Positions 1 to 40,627 of a DNA stretch of 64,000 bases are shown piece by piece (the first letter of the stretch is position 1; every line of letters starts with the position of its first letter). The stretch lies in sequence record OP870145.1. One strand, given 5' to 3'. Source of the stretch: Escherichia phage vB_Eco_F26. The translations under genes and the position numbers were made by a program. The notes beneath the pieces are model-generated. The model worked only from the letters and a program-made list of their open reading frames with translations, was not told the DNA's origin and did no database searches.

Positions 1-1170
1 ATCAAGTTCTTCTTGAAGCAGTGCTATTTCATCAGCATGGTCAATAAACTCAGAAGATGCTTTTTCTATAGCTGCTTTAACTTTTTTGGCTTTATCTACC
101 GTCGTGATTAGAGATTGCTTTTTATTGCGAATATCATTTGCCAACGACTGTTGGGTTTTAATATTATCTCGGTATTCATCAACAAGAACTTTTAAATTAT
201 CACGATGTGTTGAAAGCTGTTCAAACGAATGCGTACATTCAGAAACTTTATCTTTAATTTTAGAAACAACTTTATCACCGGAACTCAATTGTGACAAACA
301 GGTTGGACATAATCCACCTTCGTGATACATATTAATGACTTTATTATACGAGTCAATTTTTGATTTAATTAAAAATGCTTCTTGACCGATTTTATTAAAT
401 GCATCAGTTGGGTCTTCATCCAAAACAATATTAACTAATCTTTCATTAGCTTCTTCTATTTCCGATTTTAGCGTTCTAGCTTCTTTTGCCAAATCATCAT
501 ACATATTTTGCAGACGAGTAAGGTTGTCACCCGTTAATTTTTTCTGGCGTTCAACGTTATCATTATATATTTTAATTTGTTGGATAATACTATCTTTTTT
601 AACATCAAGCACTTGGTTCTGCGAATTTAATTCGCGTATTAGTGCTTTATTAAGCTTATCCATTTCAGCTAATGTTCCTACCTCAAGCAGGTCTTCCACA
701 AGCTTTCTTCGTGCAGGGGTCGACAACCCCATGAAAGGGGTATACCCTGCTGTACCAAGGACAACAATCTGCTTGAAACTGGCATATGACATTCCGATAA
801 GCTGTTCAAATTCTGCTTGGAAATCTTTACTGCTGGCAGATTCATTAAGACGTGTACCGTTAACGGTGATTTCGAAAACGTTTGGTTTTTGTCCTCTTTT
901 GATATAATACTTTTTCTCATCATATTCCATCCACAGTTCAACTAAAAGTTCTTTCTTATTTGTGCTGTTTATTAATTGACCTTTCTTTACATCACGAAAT
1001 GGTTTGCCAAAAAGCCCAAATGTGATGGCTTCTAACATAGTAGACTTACCACCGCCATTTCGTCCAGTAATAAGAGTTTTTTGAACCTTATCTAATTGAA
1101 TGTCAACTCCATTTTGACCAACTGACATTATATTTTTATATTTTACTCTATTAAGTTTAAATGATTTCAT
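1..1170 (-). CDS. 46: Recombination endonuclease subunit gp46 (SbcC/Rad50-like ATPase); N-terminal ~390 codons, 3' end beyond window edge
   Basis: Minus-strand frame open to the window edge; ATG at 1170; translation MKSFKLNRVKYKNIMSVGQNG... with Walker A GRNGGGKST; matches recalled T4 gp46 N-terminus. Confidence 0.9.
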   Translation of the reverse strand, partial: MKSFKLNRVKYKNIMSVGQNGVDIQLDKVQKTLITGRNGGGKSTMLEAITFGLFGKPFRDVKKGQLINSTNKKELLVELWMEYDEKKYYIKRGQKPNVFEITVNGTRLNESASSKDFQAEFEQLIGMSYASFKQIVVLGTAGYTPFMGLSTPARRKLVEDLLEVGTLAEMDKLNKALIRELNSQNQVLDVKKDSIIQQIKIYNDNVERQKKLTGDNLTRLQNMYDDLAKEARTLKSEIEEANERLVNIVLDEDPTDAFNKIGQEAFLIKSKIDSYNKVINMYHEGGLCPTCLSQLSSGDKVVSKIKDKVSECTHSFEQLSTHRDNLKVLVDEYRDNIKTQQSLANDIRNKKQSLITTVDKAKKVKAAIEKASSEFIDHADEIALLQEELD

Positions 1171-6977: not shown

Positions 6978-7308
6978 TTTCACCTCTTAGCTCAATTCAT
7001 AGATCTATTATATCATAATATTTGAAGATCTATCTTAAAGCATAGAGGATATCAGTTATCTAAGTAAGCAGTATGCTTGGAACACTTTCTCCATCATCTT
7101 TTTAAATTCATGAATATCTATGTAATGATCATTAATATCAGCGCGATATAAAAAGTCTAAAAACTTTTTATGGGTATTAGAGTTAATTCAGAAACATGGC
7201 TTTCCCAATATCCAACACCAGTTTTATTTGGGAAAAATGAAATTTTCATGTATTGGTCAACATAGAAAATACCAAAATTTTCAATAGCAATAGAAATATT
7301 AATTAATT

Positions 7309-7524
7309 TCATACATTCATCAACTTAGCCGCTTCAAGAGCTGCATCTAGTGAATCAAATTGGTCAACATATTCAATCAATTCGCCATAATTGGCATATA
7401 ACCACCATTGGCTAAATTCATACTCAAGGATGAATCCGTTTCCTTCAATTTGAGTTAAACCAATGCCATTTGTATTTACTTCATATCCAGCAAGACGCAA
7501 ATCGTTAATAAGAGCTTCGTTCAT
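7309..7524 (-). CDS. Hypothetical small protein
   Basis: 71-aa co-oriented ORF. Confidence 0.4.
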   Translation of the reverse strand: MNEALINDLRLAGYEVNTNGIGLTQIEGNGFILEYEFSQWWLYANYGELIEYVDQFDSLDAALEAAKLMNV

Positions 7525-12400: not shown

Positions 12401-13430
12401 TCGCAAATTCATGCCCGTTTATATGAAACAACAAAATTTGGATAGTCCATAGATATGCAACGTTCTTTTATAGCGCTAGGATGAAAATTTAGCGCTTTAG
12501 CTGCTTCTATATAAGACGTATACTTAATACCGTCAACAACCACATATTCAGGAACTTTATGAATAGTAGTCTTAATACTCAAAACAAGAGGATGAGTTTC
12601 GACTTCACTTTCAGTGCAATTTAAATATTCCGCTGCTTTTTTAAAACTTCTAAAAGTTTTATTTTTAAGCTTTATCGATACTTGTTTTTTACTTTTTCGA
12701 CTATTGATATTATTTTGCACATGTTCCTTAGATCTTCCGTTTTTAGCATAATATTCAGCTACAGAAGATTTTATATTGTTTTTATGAGATTCGGATAACA
12801 CTTTACCCTTATGAGCATCTCTTAATTTTTGAATATGTTCTTCAGTATCCGGATGCTTATAAAACTTTTTACCGCCTATGGATTTATTTAAACATTTTTT
12901 GCTATAAAAATATTTACGTATGACCTCTTCTTCATGTTTTAATGCATCTTTATAACTATCAAATGTTTTTAAAATTATCCATTTAGTAGGTGTATCAGTT
13001 TTTAAGCGTTCATTTATATACTTAGATGACGTTGTGTAAGTTTTCCAGTTTGTGGGCTTGTTTTTAATTGTTCTAAATTTTTTATAACCGATATAAATGT
13101 CGCCATTAGAAAACTTAACTAAGTATGTAAATGCGTCTTTATCTTTTATTTTAGTACAACGTCTTTTTATCCATTTCATTGTTTCACCTCGTATTCATAA
13201 GATAATCTTATTTATACAAGATGACTGCTGCATGTCGCCATGCAGATTAGACTATATCTTCATCTTTCGATGCCGGCCGTTTCGAATAGCATTAGCTTCT
13301 ATTCTACACCGCTACATTCATCACGGTTAGTCGTTAGGCATTTAGTTCAAAAGAACATTTAGCACGGGATTGTCTACTAGAGAGGTTCCCCGTTTAGACC
13401 GGTTTTACATGAGCCTGAATTAAATTAACT
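12400..13430 (-). mobile_element. Group I intron in nrdD (approximate bounds) carrying a GIY-YIG endonuclease ORF
   Basis: About 1 kb separates the two nrdD coding segments; contains a 256-aa GIY-YIG ORF and a ~240-nt ORF-free structured region (13180-13420). Confidence 0.75.
12409..13179 (-). CDS. Intron-encoded GIY-YIG homing endonuclease (I-TevII-like)
   Basis: 256 aa; FTYLVKFSNGDIYIGYKK GIY-YIG module; lies inside the nrdD intron. Confidence 0.7.
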   Translation of the reverse strand: MKWIKRRCTKIKDKDAFTYLVKFSNGDIYIGYKKFRTIKNKPTNWKTYTTSSKYINERLKTDTPTKWIILKTFDSYKDALKHEEEVIRKYFYSKKCLNKSIGGKKFYKHPDTEEHIQKLRDAHKGKVLSESHKNNIKSSVAEYYAKNGRSKEHVQNNINSRKSKKQVSIKLKNKTFRSFKKAAEYLNCTESEVETHPLVLSIKTTIHKVPEYVVVDGIKYTSYIEAAKALNFHPSAIKERCISMDYPNFVVSYKRA

Positions 13431-17426: not shown

Positions 17427-18352
17427 TTCAATACCTCAATAGCATTACGTAAACCATTTGCTTTTGCATTAAGAGCTTTTAACAGTTTGGTGTGTTCGGC
17501 AATCTGGGCTTCAACTTCAATCAAACGAGCATTGAGATATTCACGTTCTTCACTCAGGTTATCAACCTTTTCTACTTTAGGTTCTTTTACAACTTGCTTA
17601 TATGTATTAGGGTTCTTCAGTTTAATTAGAATGCGTGAACTGTACAGCATTGAACCATTATCTTCGGTTTCGTCATACATTTCCACTACGTCCATCATCT
17701 CCACCATCGTGCAGAGTTTATAAGACAACGAACGAATAATTTTGTTGTGCTTATTAATTTCTCTAGCTGTCATGGTGCCGAGATTACGTGAGTAATAATA
17801 AGGAACCTGGATATTAATTAATACTGATGAACCACCTGGCTTGTGTGTTACTTCATCAGCAATAACCCAATCCTTAACATGAACTGTATTTGTACGGTCA
17901 TCGCCCGCGGTAAATAGTTTACGAGCATGCTTAAAAAGCATATTCACTTGGTCATTGAATTGACAAGCGAATTTATCAGCAAATTTAGTTTCGGGAATGG
18001 TAGATAACCAATCAGTCAAATGGGTCTTTTTAACATCGTTAACAATAGTAAATTCAACCAAATCGGTTATAGATGTCTCAGATTTAATGAAGCTCGGCTT
18101 CATAAAGTTTTTAATGTTATCACTAGCTACAGTAGAAGATAACAGACGAGAACGTTTAAACCATTGAAGCAAATTGCCTAACGAATGAGAATAAGCGTTT
18201 TGAGTATCTTTACAGATATGATTTTCCTGGCCAACATATTGAAGGAAATCACGAAGAATATTATTGATTACTGCCCTGTGTCCTATCTGATAATTACGAT
18301 GTTTAGTAATAAGACTGTCAAAATAATCAATATAATGTTTACGAGTTTTCAT
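17423..18352 (-). CDS. Hypothetical protein, member of a four-gene tandem paralog family with C-terminal coiled coil
   Basis: 309 aa; N-terminus MKTRKHY...; C-terminal heptad-like region ([42 protein letters not shown]). Confidence 0.5.
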   Translation of the reverse strand: MKTRKHYIDYFDSLITKHRNYQIGHRAVINNILRDFLQYVGQENHICKDTQNAYSHSLGNLLQWFKRSRLLSSTVASDNIKNFMKPSFIKSETSITDLVEFTIVNDVKKTHLTDWLSTIPETKFADKFACQFNDQVNMLFKHARKLFTAGDDRTNTVHVKDWVIADEVTHKPGGSSVLINIQVPYYYSRNLGTMTAREINKHNKIIRSLSYKLCTMVEMMDVVEMYDETEDNGSMLYSSRILIKLKNPNTYKQVVKEPKVEKVDNLSEEREYLNARLIEVEAQIAEHTKLLKALNAKANGLRNAIEVLK

Positions 18353-18404
18353 GTTCTTCTCACTTTGTTAATGATTTGTACTCCGAGCCATCCTTGGCTT
18401 TAAA

Positions 18405-36991: not shown

Positions 36992-37585
36992 TTATTTCAG
37001 AGAATTAATGTATTCCTGAACATCGGCAGAAGTAGTTTCAACCCCAGAAATATTACCGTTAAAGGTTTCAACTCGAGCAAGGGTATCTTCAATATCAACC
37101 TTAGTCAGTGCTGCAATTTCAACTACATCATCAGCAGTACTAATTCCAAGGGCATTTGCTGCACGAGTTTCACGGATATATTCCAATTTAACTGCAAGTT
37201 CTTGGCGAGCATCATCCAATTCAACTACTTTCTTGGCGATTTCAATTCGCATTTCAGCATACCCATCAGCTTTAGTAGTCAACTGTTCAGCTGTTCGACG
37301 ATATAGCAAGCCGAGTTTAGCATGCATTGTTACATCTTGACCTTCGGAAAGAAGCTTGCGAATTTCACGCTCTTTTGATTCAGCCTGTTTATTCTTTTCA
37401 ATAACAAGTTCACGAATACGTTTTTCTTCATTAATAGATTTAACAGAAGCAGTTTTTAGGTCTTTAATTTTATCAAGTAATTTTGCTGCTGCAGCAGTGT
37501 ACTGTTCTTCAACAGATAGATTTTTAGCCATAGCAGAACCAAGTTTAGTGCGAATAAAATCAACAATTTTCTTCAGTGTGTTCAT
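36992..37585 (-). CDS. Coiled-coil protein, PspA/IM30-like
   Basis: 197 aa, almost entirely heptad-rich helical sequence. Confidence 0.35.
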
Positions 37586-37633
37586 AGTATTTCCTTAGGT
37601 TAATTAAGATTTAAAATCCATGAGAGTATTATA

Positions 37634-37810
37634 CTCCGGATAGTTTGTAAACTATTTCAACATCGCCTTTTGCTGCTTTATAACCTTCAGCCCAAGATAC
37701 AACCGAGTTTTTATCTGAAGATTCAAATTCTGGCATTGGACTTTCATCAATGTTCACACAGTATGTTTCTTCATTTTCGTCAAACCAAATAGTTAAAGTA
37801 GTCATTTATT
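37634..37810 (-). CDS. Small hypothetical protein (58 aa, below ORF-track threshold)
   Basis: Hand translation MTTLTIWFDENEETYCVNIDESPMPEFESSDKNS... Confidence 0.3.
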
Positions 37811-37873
37811 TCTCCGCTTCTGTGATTGTTTTGATAAGTCTATAATAACACCGTCCTTGGTGTTTGTACACAC

Positions 37874-38137
37874 TTATTTCATATTATTGAAATATTCTTC
37901 TGCGATTTCATCGTTATCGTGGTAAACTTTAGAAGACAGTTTAACATAACCTTCAGCAGTGAACATATTAATCACAACTTTTACAGTATACCACTGACCG
38001 TCTTCATTACCCATTACTGCGTAAGTTTCAAACATCGGATGGTCAGGACCGATAACTTTAATATCATTCACTGTACGACCGAAATCTTCTGAAACGCATT
38101 TCATAAAGAAGTTGAACAGTTCGCCGTAATTATCCAT
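37874..38137 (-). CDS. Hypothetical small protein (start region duplicated in the adjacent tandem repeat)
   Basis: 87 aa from ATG at 38137 (MDNYGELFNFF...), GGAG 7 nt upstream; track ORF uses an upstream TTG. Confidence 0.5.
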   Translation of the reverse strand: MDNYGELFNFFMKCVSEDFGRTVNDIKVIGPDHPMFETYAVMGNEDGQWYTVKVVINMFTAEGYVKLSSKVYHDNDEIAEEYFNNMK

Positions 38138-38180
38138 TTCATTCTCCAAGTTGTTTTCTGTATCAGTAGTTGATAGTTGT

Positions 38181-38210
38181 ATAGTACCACGGAAGAACAG
38201 AGATGTAAAC
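38181..38210 (-). promoter_or_regulatory. Early promoter (-35 GTTTAC / -10 TACTAT), conserved module; copy 1
   Basis: Minus strand ttcacaaaactGTTTACatctctgttcttccgtggTACTAT. Confidence 0.55.
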
Positions 38211-38530
38211 AGTTTTGTGAAAAATTTTTTAAAAAGTTTTAGGGAATTCTAGGGAAGGGAGGGGCAATTAAAGGATAGGATAATATATTATAAAGGGTAG
38301 AAACTAAATGATGCCTAGAGAGGTCCAGAAAGGCCTAGATGCCAAAAAGCCCTATCATTTAGATAGGGATTTAAAATTATTTATCTAGTTTAGTTATTAT
38401 AGCTTCTACGGCAGCTTTTAGCTTAGATGCGGTGTTAATACGATTTTTAATTTCAGTATACGCGAACAGTTCGCCGTAATTATCCATTTCATTCTCCAAG
38501 TTGTTTTCTGTATCAGTAGTTGATAGTTGT

Positions 38531-38560
38531 ATAGTACCACGGAAGAACAGAGATGTAAAC
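38531..38560 (-). promoter_or_regulatory. Early promoter, duplicate copy 2 inside the tandem repeat
   Basis: Identical to 38181-38210 at +350. Confidence 0.5.
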
Positions 38561-38726
38561 AGTTTTGTGAAAAATTTTTTAAAAAGTTTTAGGGAATTCT
38601 AGGGAAGGGAGGGGCAATTAAAGGATAGGATAATATATTATAAAGGGTAGAAACTAAATGATGCCTAGAGAGGTCCAGAAAGGCCTAGATGCCAAAAAGC
38701 CCTATCATTTAGATAGGGATTTAAAA

Positions 38727-39290
38727 TTATTTATCTAGTTTAGTTATTATAGCTTCTACGGCAGCTTTTAGCTTAGATGCGGTGTTAATACGATTTTTAA
38801 TTTCAGTATACGCATCGCCAAGAACATCAAGGCTATCAGAATAAACACTTACACTATTGCGTTCGCTATTTGAAATAGAACCTTTAGTTTTACGATCAAA
38901 ATCGGTGTACACGTCTTGAAGATCACGCGCTGCCTTCTTTGCATCATCCAATGCATCAAGAGCTTTATTCAAAGCATTAACGTATTTTTTAGTGTCGAAC
39001 ATATTCTTAGAAATTTTAGCAGGTGCACGTTCAGGAGTAGCTAATACAGATTTAGGAACCTGAGCGCCAGATGCCAATTTCTTAGAAATTTTGAAAAACG
39101 CTTTATTGAATTTATTTTCTTGACTCATCGTAAAAGAACTATTATCGATGTTGTACATTTCAATAGCTTTAGCTTTCCACTTAAGAAAATCGCCGCGGTC
39201 TTTTGGGTCCAAGTGGAAAAATACTTTAGTAAGATCTGCTTCAGATGGTAATTTTGCTGCTTCGGTTAAAAATTCGGCATAGGTTTTCAT
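38727..39290 (-). CDS. Internal-protein (IP)-like capsid-injected protein
   Basis: 187 aa; N-terminus MKTYAEFLTEA matches the IP capsid-targeting consensus. Confidence 0.65.
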   Translation of the reverse strand: MKTYAEFLTEAAKLPSEADLTKVFFHLDPKDRGDFLKWKAKAIEMYNIDNSSFTMSQENKFNKAFFKISKKLASGAQVPKSVLATPERAPAKISKNMFDTKKYVNALNKALDALDDAKKAARDLQDVYTDFDRKTKGSISNSERNSVSVYSDSLDVLGDAYTEIKNRINTASKLKAAVEAIITKLDK

Positions 39291-39385
39291 TTAAAATCCT
39301 TGAAATAATTTATCGGTTGGTTATTAATTATTTATTACTTTGTTATTATCCGTAACAGCATTCTCTATGTGATTCAAACTAAAAA

Positions 39386-39405
39386 CCCCAACCTTTCGGT
39401 CGGGG
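39386..39405 (-). terminator. Rho-independent terminator (CCCCGACC-GAAA-GGTTGGGG followed by T-run on minus strand)
   Basis: 8-bp stem, GAAA tetraloop, TTTTT. Confidence 0.6.
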
Positions 39406-39414
39406 CTAAGAATG

Positions 39415-39887
39415 TTATTTGATTTGTTTAGCAGACCAAATGCGGTCTTTGATGATTTTTTGAATGTCTTCAACATACTCAAGAGAGTGAACATGTGGAT
39501 TATCTTTGAAACTATAAGCACGGGCTAACTTTTGGCCTTCGGTTTTGATTACTAAAAGCTCTTTAAGGATAGCTTCATATTTAGCGATAATTCCTTTAAC
39601 GATATTTTTTCTTGTGCAGCTTTAGGATCTGCTTTAGGAGCAGGTTTACCCGAAGCCTTTGCAAAAGCAGCACCAGTAGCAACTAAACTTTTCCAGGCCA
39701 TACTAACCGCATTTCCTGTAAATCCTTCTGCTTTCATGTCGCGAGCAAACTGGAATCGTGATTCGTCAGAAGCATCTTTATAGGAATATTTACCCGCTGC
39801 AATGGCTGCTTTTGCGACAGCTTGAATTTCGGTGCTAGATGCTTCATTTAACACCGCTTCATTTAAAAATTGAGCATATGATTTCAT
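39415..39887 (-). pseudogene. IP-like gene disrupted by a frameshift at a homopolymer (or sequencing error)
   Basis: Frame 1 (MKSYAQFLNEA..., capsid-targeting-like) stops at 39552; a +2 frame continues from the T6 run at 39605-39610 to a stop at 39415 right before the terminator; restoring one base would give a ~157-aa protein. Confidence 0.5.
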
Positions 39888-39927
39888 CTTATTTCCTGTT
39901 TTAATTCGTGGATTTAATATACTACTA

Positions 39928-39935
39928 TATTTATA
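39928..39935 (-). promoter_or_regulatory. Late promoter TATAAATA
   Basis: Exact TATAAATA on minus strand ~40 nt upstream of the IP-like gene start. Confidence 0.55.
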
Positions 39936-39943
39936 CTAAAAAG

Positions 39944-39963
39944 CCCCAACCTTTCGGTCGGGG
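39944..39963 (-). terminator. Rho-independent terminator (second copy of the CCCCGACC-GAAA-GGTTGGGG hairpin + T-run)
   Basis: Near-identical to 39386-39405; ends the tRNA/ncRNA transcription unit. Confidence 0.6.
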
Positions 39964-39970
39964 CTAAGCC

Positions 39971-40270
39971 TTGCGGCAACCTTGTCGGGGTTCCACCTGC
40001 TAAGGCAAGTGTTTGTACGAAACGCCGGGATTCGAACCCGGTTATTAAGCAGTTGACGCTACTTAATATTTTTAAAAGGCCATATCTCGACCATATCCGA
40101 ACGTTCCGTCAAAAACGCTACTCGGCTTACGGCAAAGATATTTCCTCGAATCGATAATTCGGTGCGCCGTTTCTGCTGTGATGTAAGAGGGCATCAACAA
40201 ATCATAAAGATTTATTAACACAATTCCTTACCCAGGGAACATCAGTCCGACGACTTACCGGTAGCGACCC
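39971..40270 (-). ncRNA. ORF-free structured region with tRNA-like elements (candidate small stable RNAs, analogous to T4 tRNA-cluster species RNAs)
   Basis: ~300 nt without ORF; T-arm-like CCGGGTTCGAATCCCGG with a pairing acceptor-like stem; bounded by terminator. Confidence 0.4.
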
Positions 40271-40276
40271 GGTTTC

Positions 40277-40627
40277 TTAATATTCTTTTAAAGCATCAAT
40301 CTGTTCACGACGTTTACGCCATAAATCAATTGCTTCATACGCAGATTCAGCATTTCGAATTGGACGGCATTTATATAAAGACTTGTGATTTTGATATTGC
40401 GTAGATAACGGAATTTTATCTAAAAGGTCTTTACGTTCAAAGTATTCGTAACCATCTAAGCCAAATGAACGATTTTTGAGAAATTGCCAATGACCGTATT
40501 CGTTTTCGACATAAACATAATCTGCGTGCTGATAAAGCAAATTAATTACACGTTCAGAAATAACAGTGTCATTATGATTAAAATAGAATGTTAAATCATG
40601 AACTACTAAATAAACATTACCTTTCAT
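40277..40627 (-). CDS. Hypothetical protein
   Basis: 116-aa ORF between tRNA-Arg and the ncRNA region. Confidence 0.45.
   Translation of the reverse strand: MKGNVYLVVHDLTFYFNHNDTVISERVINLLYQHADYVYVENEYGHWQFLKNRSFGLDGYEYFERKDLLDKIPLSTQYQNHKSLYKCRPIRNAESAYEAIDLWRKRREQIDALKEY

Follow-up and report, generated by a model that had tools for sequence, protein, structure and literature searches.

The sequence record of Escherichia phage vB_Eco_F26 (OP870145.1) contains a perfect 350-bp tandem duplication, and we consider it very probable, judging from sequence comparisons, that this is an assembly or finishing artefact and not a feature of the phage DNA. It has the two marks looked for in an artefact of this kind: the copies are identical with a joint that has no independent occurrence, and such a repeat recurs once per genome in records from the same submitter. 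The first-pass annotation of this DNA had offered two readings, a very recent event, towards which it leaned, or an assembly artefact. We favour the second over the biological reading, as the joint is unique to one record, the single copy in phage vB_EcoM_G50 equals the repeat unit, and all three sister records contain an analogous repeat.

We analysed a window of 64,000 nucleotides from the 172,940-bp F26 record, and the repeat count in F26 covers this window. Positions 38114-38463 recur at 38464-38813 with identity at 350 of 350 bases, as had been noticed on first reading. This is the one tandem repeat that TRF found in the window (period 350, 2.0 copies, matches 100%, score 1400), and in a self-BLAST of the window the pair is the sole long direct repeat. 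Both borders are blunt, with 0 bp of microhomology at the joint: on the left, the base preceding copy 1 is T whereas the final base of the unit is C, and on the right, the base following copy 2 is A whereas the opening base of the unit is G. The joint reads ...CAGTATACGC / GAACAGTTCG..., also given as ...TTTCAGTATACGC / GAACAGTTCGCCGTA..., and all genes around the repeat are on the minus strand. Coordinates of the features are collected in Table 1, together with those of the repeats in the three sister records.

Table 1. Features at the F26 repeat (positions in the 64-kb window) and tandem repeats in the sister records F25, F27 and F22 (positions in each record).
Feature	Position	Strand	Description
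Copy 1 of the 350-bp unit	38114-38463		Downstream copy in gene orientation, continuous with intact e.8; equals the G50 single copy
Copy 2 of the 350-bp unit	38464-38813		Upstream copy, continuous with the intact 187-aa gene
Novel joint	38463/38464		
e.8 homologue, 87 aa, phrog_2678	37874-38137	minus	Intact; first 8 codons (38114-38137) within the unit
187-aa internal-protein-like gene, phrog_2280	38727-39290	minus	Intact; last 28 codons and stop (38727-38813) within the unit
Chimeric mini-ORF F26_0134 (WBF80282.1)	38377-38499	minus	Spans the joint; GenBank-annotated
Terminator-like hairpin and U tract, copy 1	38342-38368	minus	Directly 3' of the chimeric ORF stop; weak, predicted
Terminator-like hairpin and U tract, copy 2	38692-38718	minus	Directly 3' of the 187-aa gene stop; weak, predicted
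Early-type promoter, copy 1	38181-38209	minus	(G)TTTACA, 17 nt, TG-n-TACTAT; A/T-rich block upstream; would drive e.8 (predicted)
Early-type promoter, copy 2	38531-38559	minus	Predicted to drive the chimeric mini-ORF, were the duplication real
Shine-Dalgarno GGAG	38144-38147	minus	6 nt upstream of the e.8 ATG; duplicate at 38494-38497 precedes the chimeric ORF
F25 repeat	166819-166974 plus 1-162; 163-480		Tequatrovirus, 166,974 bp; period 318, perfect, 2.0 copies, 0 bp microhomology
F27 repeat	17692-18034; 18035-18377		Mosigvirus, 168,845 bp; period 343, perfect, 1 bp microhomology (chance)
F22 repeat	joint 64642/64643		N4-like, 71,794 bp; period 441, one mismatch, within the tail-fibre CDS

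There is no complete gene inside the unit. Read along the minus strand, it consists of 87 nt from the 3' end of the 187-aa gene (28 codons plus stop), 239 nt of intergenic region, and 24 nt from the start of e.8 (8 codons), a gene that takes its name from the annotation in RB14 and T4. Both full genes are still intact beside the repeat, as any tandem duplication spanning a gene border leaves them so. The content of the unit had been described correctly as to coordinates, gene ends and promoter, but the promoter module is not "terminator-less", since a hairpin CCCTATCTAAATGATAGGG followed by CUUUUUGG lies within the unit (38368-38350 and 38718-38700). This terminator-like hairpin has a 7-bp stem and the tail CTTTTTGG, with a predicted energy of -10.5 kcal/mol (z = -2.3), and the same site is annotated as a terminator in the G50 record. 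The A/T-rich block and the early-type promoter follow ~140 nt beyond it.

The cassette, including its early promoter, is conserved in T4, RB14, G50, T-01 and one IMG/VR contig, and the Shine-Dalgarno GGAG is conserved in the alignment of relatives. The gene upstream of the cassette differs by phage: it is rnaC in T4, and elsewhere an ORF of 187, 157, 153 or 94 aa, or a GIY-YIG gene. The exact e.8 protein occurs in 1305 blocks of the gene-position index. PHROGs assigned the genes at the repeat to families of unknown function only, and Pfam returned nothing significant for them. An Rfam scan of 37500-40300 gave a chance-level match only (RT-6, E = 0.49), and no known RNA in the unit.

The upstream gene had been called "IP-like" in the first-pass annotation, and from its N-terminus we find this a fair label, though the gene is not at a classical internal protein (IP) locus. 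The capsid-targeting N-terminus of T4 internal proteins is of the MKTYQEFIAE type and ends in (L/I)-x-E. The 187-aa protein appears to have such a targeting sequence, beginning MKTYAEFLTEA compared with MKTYQEFIAEA in T4 IPIII, with 8 of the first 12 residues matching; a paralogue at 39552-39887, likewise of phrog_2280, begins MKSYAQFLNEA. In T4, ipII and ipIII are downstream of e, and rnaC/rnaD are upstream of e.8; the 187-aa gene is positioned between e.8 and the tRNA cluster, which is outside the two classical IP loci. The exact 187-aa protein was found elsewhere only in G50 and in ENA contig ERZ24773491, as a single copy in each.

Across the joint, an in-frame 36-aa fusion with the joint on codon boundaries had been proposed, and our ORF reading bears this out. 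The joint product is MDNYGELF+AYTEIKNRINTASKLKAAVEAIITKLDK, which is 36 aa long from the ATG at 38487 and 40 aa long from a TTG at 38499. The 40-aa version, F26_0134, is a one-member cluster among ~15 billion proteins, coming from a single contig (172,940 bp), and there was no call of this chimeric ORF in any other assembly looked up. The peptide has no homologues other than its two parent genes. If the duplication is an artefact, then on this reading the phage itself has no F26_0134 ORF, no second promoter and no second terminator.

The region is that of a Tequatrovirus, and its nearest local match is G50 (99%), in which the window start corresponds to ~32,690; over the whole window, identity to records in the phage collection, G50 included, is only 95-97%. 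Over 37503-39480, one position distinguishes G50 from the window, and the one copy that G50 carries matches the unit exactly. Comparison with related T4-like genomes had been suggested as a check, and every relative inspected has a single copy. These include the best 40 of 628 matching phage records, in which the span is ~350 bp below that of the query; G50, T-01, RB14 and F25, which were inspected more closely at this locus; and 10 more contigs with an identical e.8 protein. Logan contig ERR4993045, which encodes the 111-aa protein of the window, and an IMG/VR contig sharing a window-specific 35-mer (95-96% identity) are also relatives with a single copy, and look-ups of proteins encoded far from the locus returned relatives only. 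Searches of 50,697 phage records with a 36-mer spanning the joint, and of IMG/VR, GTDB genomes, JGI metagenomes and 29 fetched loci with a 28-mer, found no match. In short-read assembly, perfect tandem repeats tend to be merged into one copy, and the absence of the repeat from other records is therefore partly a detection bias.

Poor consensus quality was considered as a cause and rejected. Comparison of ~90 ORFs with G50 gave just two frame breaks, one of which, the 111-aa allele, is natural variation shared with SfPhi01 and the Logan contig, and we conclude from this that the consensus is generally good.

F26 is one of four phages with consecutive accessions in one GenBank submission: F22 (OP870143), F25 (OP870144), F26 (OP870145) and F27 (OP870146). 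Self-alignment of F22, F25 and F27 at full length, with F25 circularised, revealed exactly one long tandem repeat in each, to be set beside that in the 64-kb F26 window. The F25 unit joins the rIIB 5' end to the rIIA 3' end and lies across the rIIB/rIIA record origin, with the record ends joined; its joint, TTACGTGATAA / GTTTAGCTTC, is near record position 162/163. The F27 unit takes in the 3' end of one gene and the opening 168 nt of the primase gene downstream of it, and the circular join of F27 revealed no further repeat. The F25 and F27 joints are each present only in their own records. The F27 query is covered to 80% or more by 151 Mosigvirus records; each of the 11 best listed has one copy, with a span of ~1158 bp for the 1501-bp query. 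At the F22 site, phage E20 is 99.9% identical to F22 and has a single copy, such that the tail protein gene is 2676 nt long in E20 compared with 3117 nt in F22.

The four repeats (318, 343, 350 and 441 bp), all within a narrow size range, are at unrelated sites in three genera, with 0, 0, 1 and 1 bp of microhomology over the four joints. A control sample of fetched loci (~274 kb in total) was free of direct repeats of 150 bp or longer with 98% or higher identity; it comprised ~237 kb of T4-like loci of other origin and 36.7 kb of the N4-like E20. Because four genomes from the same submitter each carry one perfect or near-perfect repeat at unrelated sites, a technical cause is indicated, and the four repeats together bear the mark of one technical step common to the batch.

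The simplest model is that of an untrimmed overlap. A circularly permuted or terminally redundant genome would assemble into a contig with ends overlapping by a few hundred bases. If this contig was closed, and then rotated to begin with rIIA as is conventional for T4, while the overlap stayed untrimmed, a single perfect head-to-tail repeat would result, its joint blunt and arbitrarily placed where the contig had ended. The 0-1 bp of microhomology fits such arbitrary end points. We infer that the exact technical step was an overlap kept at closure, or a similar finishing error.

The T4-like sister records are in T4 orientation, F27 beginning inside the rIIA 3' end and F25 at the rIIA/rIIB border. 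We considered whether the first 2.2 kb of F27, which are unannotated, represent a broken rIIA, and rejected this, as the region is an intact rIIA running off the record start. The F25 origin has the order rIIA end, rIIB start, rIIA end ... rIIB start, which would arise if a contig whose ends overlap by 318 bp were cut open again at the gene border with no trimming. As a counterpoint, the F25 repeat is exactly at the conventional origin, where a random closure point would fall with a chance of ~0.4%. Given this location, the technical route may differ between records, or a reference-guided step may also be involved.

Typical k-mer-sized overlaps of SPAdes are up to 127 bp, and the 350 bp in F26 is longer than these. 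Internal repeats are documented as phage assembly artefacts (PMC10438801), and the F26 repeat resembles the overlap artefacts of circular and circularly permuted phages, of which a removed 79-bp internal repeat is an example (PMC10438801). It is likewise a single perfect head-to-tail repeat, arbitrarily placed, which relatives lack and which has no homology at the joint, with counterparts in genomes from the same submitter.

The chief rival, which we regard as unlikely, is that the F26 stock underwent a real tandem duplication, neutral and very recent. Illegitimate recombination or a replication error would have joined 38463 to 38114 on sister molecules, and a plaque-purification bottleneck would have fixed the result, so that a self-contained unit of promoter, Shine-Dalgarno sequence, 36-aa ORF and weak terminator would have been added, with the gene on either side intact. 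The intact flanking genes and an extra unit equipped with all predicted expression signals are consistent with this, as is the perfect identity of the copies with a recent event, and short-read assemblies of relatives could conceal similar events. The joint, though, has no carrier among the relatives examined, and no known biological process predicts blunt repeats of 318-441 bp in each of the three sister records, at unrelated sites.

Tandem duplications are real events in T4 (PMC9391042), and the first-pass annotation was right that they are known in T-even phages; however, those in T4 use flanking microhomology and whole genes, both of which are absent here. The documented examples are the microhomology-mediated amplification of dmd-tifA (Srikant et al. 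2022; PMC9391042) and, as described in that paper, the amplification of genes 16-18 in Hp17 mutants (Wu et al. 1991). Flanking homology in these T4 events is 2-10 bp, typically 6-10 bp, and whole genes are amplified under selection, often in many copies, with compensating deletions forced by the headful (PMC9391042). The F26 duplication resembles them in its head-to-tail arrangement within a T4-type genome, in its novel joint and in that a promoter can be carried along. It differs in having 0 bp of homology at either border, exactly two copies, and only gene fragments and intergenic DNA in the unit; with no complete gene present, gene dosage offers no obvious selective reason for it.

Two further considerations bear on a real duplication. 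T4-type recombination requires patches of <50 bp (PMC2839356), and by this measure a perfect repeat of 350 bp ought to collapse before long. F26 is also the longest of 421 Tequatrovirus records (PMC13353012) and is already at the T4 headful limit of ~172 kb (PMC9391042), such that the extra DNA would reduce terminal redundancy.

A genuine duplication under selection, whether for stronger early transcription into e.8 with two promoters present or for a new function of the 36-aa peptide (gene birth), is highly improbable. The fusion is in frame, with codon borders in both genes, and has its own copies of the promoter, Shine-Dalgarno sequence and terminator. An in-frame joint is nevertheless expected by chance in one case out of three, and the F26 joint is the only one in frame among the three T4-like repeats of the batch, that of F27 being out of frame. 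The terminator copy lies between the two promoters, which would leave a small gain for e.8; the peptide resembles nothing outside its parent genes; and every argument against a real duplication also holds here.

Promoter/stem-loop (PeSL) cassettes in the hyperplastic regions of T4-type genomes, and analogous promoter/stem-loop elements at T-even internal-protein loci, have been described (Arbiol et al. 2010, PMC2839356; Comeau et al. 2014, PMC4122927; and, as cited there, Repoila et al. 1994). The F26 intergenic region probably belongs with these, having a predicted stem-loop terminator after a stop codon, a sigma-70/early-type promoter with an A/T-rich block, and variable neighbours, in a hyperplastic region by internal-protein-like genes. 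The cassette is cargo of the duplication and not its recombination site, as the end points of the unit are 24 nt and 87 nt from the intergenic region. Shuffling of such cassettes, in which a small circle excised between promoter-terminator cassettes re-integrates by homologous recombination to leave a tandem repeat, would suit a unit that encloses a terminator and early-promoter cassette next to variable upstream genes, and cassettes and mini-circles of this sort have been described (PMC2839356, PMC4122927), but we reject it as scarcely credible: the end points are in coding sequence outside the cassettes (e.8 codon 8 and codon 159 of the 187-aa gene) and share no homology, a single cassette type is involved, and the pattern in the sister records indicates a technical cause.

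An artefactual origin of the repeat thus remains our preferred reading, and its value is for curation more than for biology, the biological interest being low. Were the duplication real and recent, which is distinctly unlikely, a single step would have created a new early transcription unit (promoter, Shine-Dalgarno sequence, 36-aa chimeric ORF and terminator) in a hyperplastic region, and the origin of a small ORFan cassette would have been caught in the act; in that case the F25, F27 and F22 repeats would suggest that blunt duplications of ~320-440 bp arise in phage stocks through some unrecognised process.

On the artefact reading, OP870143-OP870146 are four consecutive records, each apparently with one artefactual tandem repeat, and F26_0134 is now in protein databases as a spurious singleton ORFan. 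We suggest that where a perfect, blunt, one-off tandem repeat is found in a circularly permuted phage, sister records and reads be compared before gene birth or amplification is inferred. The repeat adds 350 bp to a record that is cited as the largest Tequatrovirus genome (PMC13353012), and that in F22 makes the tail-fibre protein 147 aa longer, so that comparisons of host range could be misled.

Each of three sister records, deposited in the same GenBank submission batch as F26, carries a tandem duplication (see the table). The unit in vB_Eco_F25 joins the 3′ end of rIIA to the 5′ end of rIIB and has given rise to two small annotated fragment CDSs, F25_0001 and F25_0002; it is the sole long perfect repeat in that genome, and its joint was found in no other record among 50,697 phage records. 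At the vB_Eco_F27 duplication, the annotation lists F27_0029, an ORF of 48 aa, and F27_0030, an additional 'DNA primase' fragment of 59 aa; the joint of this duplication is confined to the F27 record, and the site is single copy in the best 11 of 151 relatives. The vB_Eco_F22 duplication makes the tail-fibre CDS 147 aa longer than that of phage E20, which is 99.9% identical at the site. Separately, the start of the F22 record (L040:1-513) is a near-palindrome, 92% self-complementary over its first 513 nt, and looks like an end artefact too.

Tandem duplications in the sister records, and the region upstream of e.8, the minus-strand gene at window 37874-38137
Feature	Length	Record	Coordinates	Location
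Terminator-to-promoter region	~240 nt	F26 window	38138-38376; copy 38488-38726	upstream of e.8
Perfect tandem duplication	318 bp	OP870144 (vB_Eco_F25)	L036:1-480 and L037:16819-16974	straddling the record origin
Perfect tandem duplication	343 bp	OP870146 (vB_Eco_F27)	L032:17692-18378	primase 5′ end and upstream gene's 3′ end
Tandem duplication, one mismatch	441 bp	OP870143 (vB_Eco_F22)	record 64202-65084 (L041:14202-15084)	within tail-fibre CDS

The region upstream of e.8 is kept even in T4; there, its upstream neighbour is rnaC. T4 differs from the window in having another hairpin, AGCCCCGACCGAAAGGTTGGGGCT, at the terminator position, and in the window this T4-type hairpin lies 3′ of the cluster's other two genes (hairpins at 39384-39407 and 39942-39965). 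The switch point between the window and T4 falls at the U tract of the hairpin, a position compatible with cassette-type modular exchange. Between hairpin and promoter lie 130 conserved nt without an assigned function. A weak Rfam match to the RT-6 sRNA (window 38185-38243 and 38535-38593, plus strand; E = 0.49, with 19.3 bits where the gathering score is 46.7) overlaps the A/T-rich block upstream of the promoter, and we take it as a chance match.

The second IP-like paralogue (window 39552-39887, minus strand), resembling T4 internal proteins, is 111 aa long versus 157 aa in vB_EcoM_G50, the closest local relative, because a T run near 39604 has lengths of T6 here and T7 in G50, a difference of one base. 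Logan contig ERR4993045 encodes the identical 111-aa protein, and close relatives of it, likewise of 111 aa, are present in other assemblies and in Shigella phage SfPhi01; the paralogue is thus a natural truncated allele rather than the result of a sequencing error. Elsewhere, the alignment of a small ORF (window 7059-7312, minus strand) with its 89-aa counterpart in G50 changes frame near 7178-7184; this break may reflect either a frameshift or natural variation.

At 172,940 bp, F26 is the largest among 421 Tequatrovirus records (PMC13353012), and its record length is about one T4 headful (headful size: PMC9391042). Window 1-51348 exceeds the co-linear part of G50 by ~5 kb, a surplus made up of many insertions, each of 0.3-1 kb; these insertions account for almost all of the excess length of F26. 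Among them is an intron-like insert with a SegE-like GIY-YIG gene (window 12409-13179), which splits nrdD and is flanked by more endonuclease genes; several metagenome contigs share this split-nrdD/GIY-YIG arrangement.
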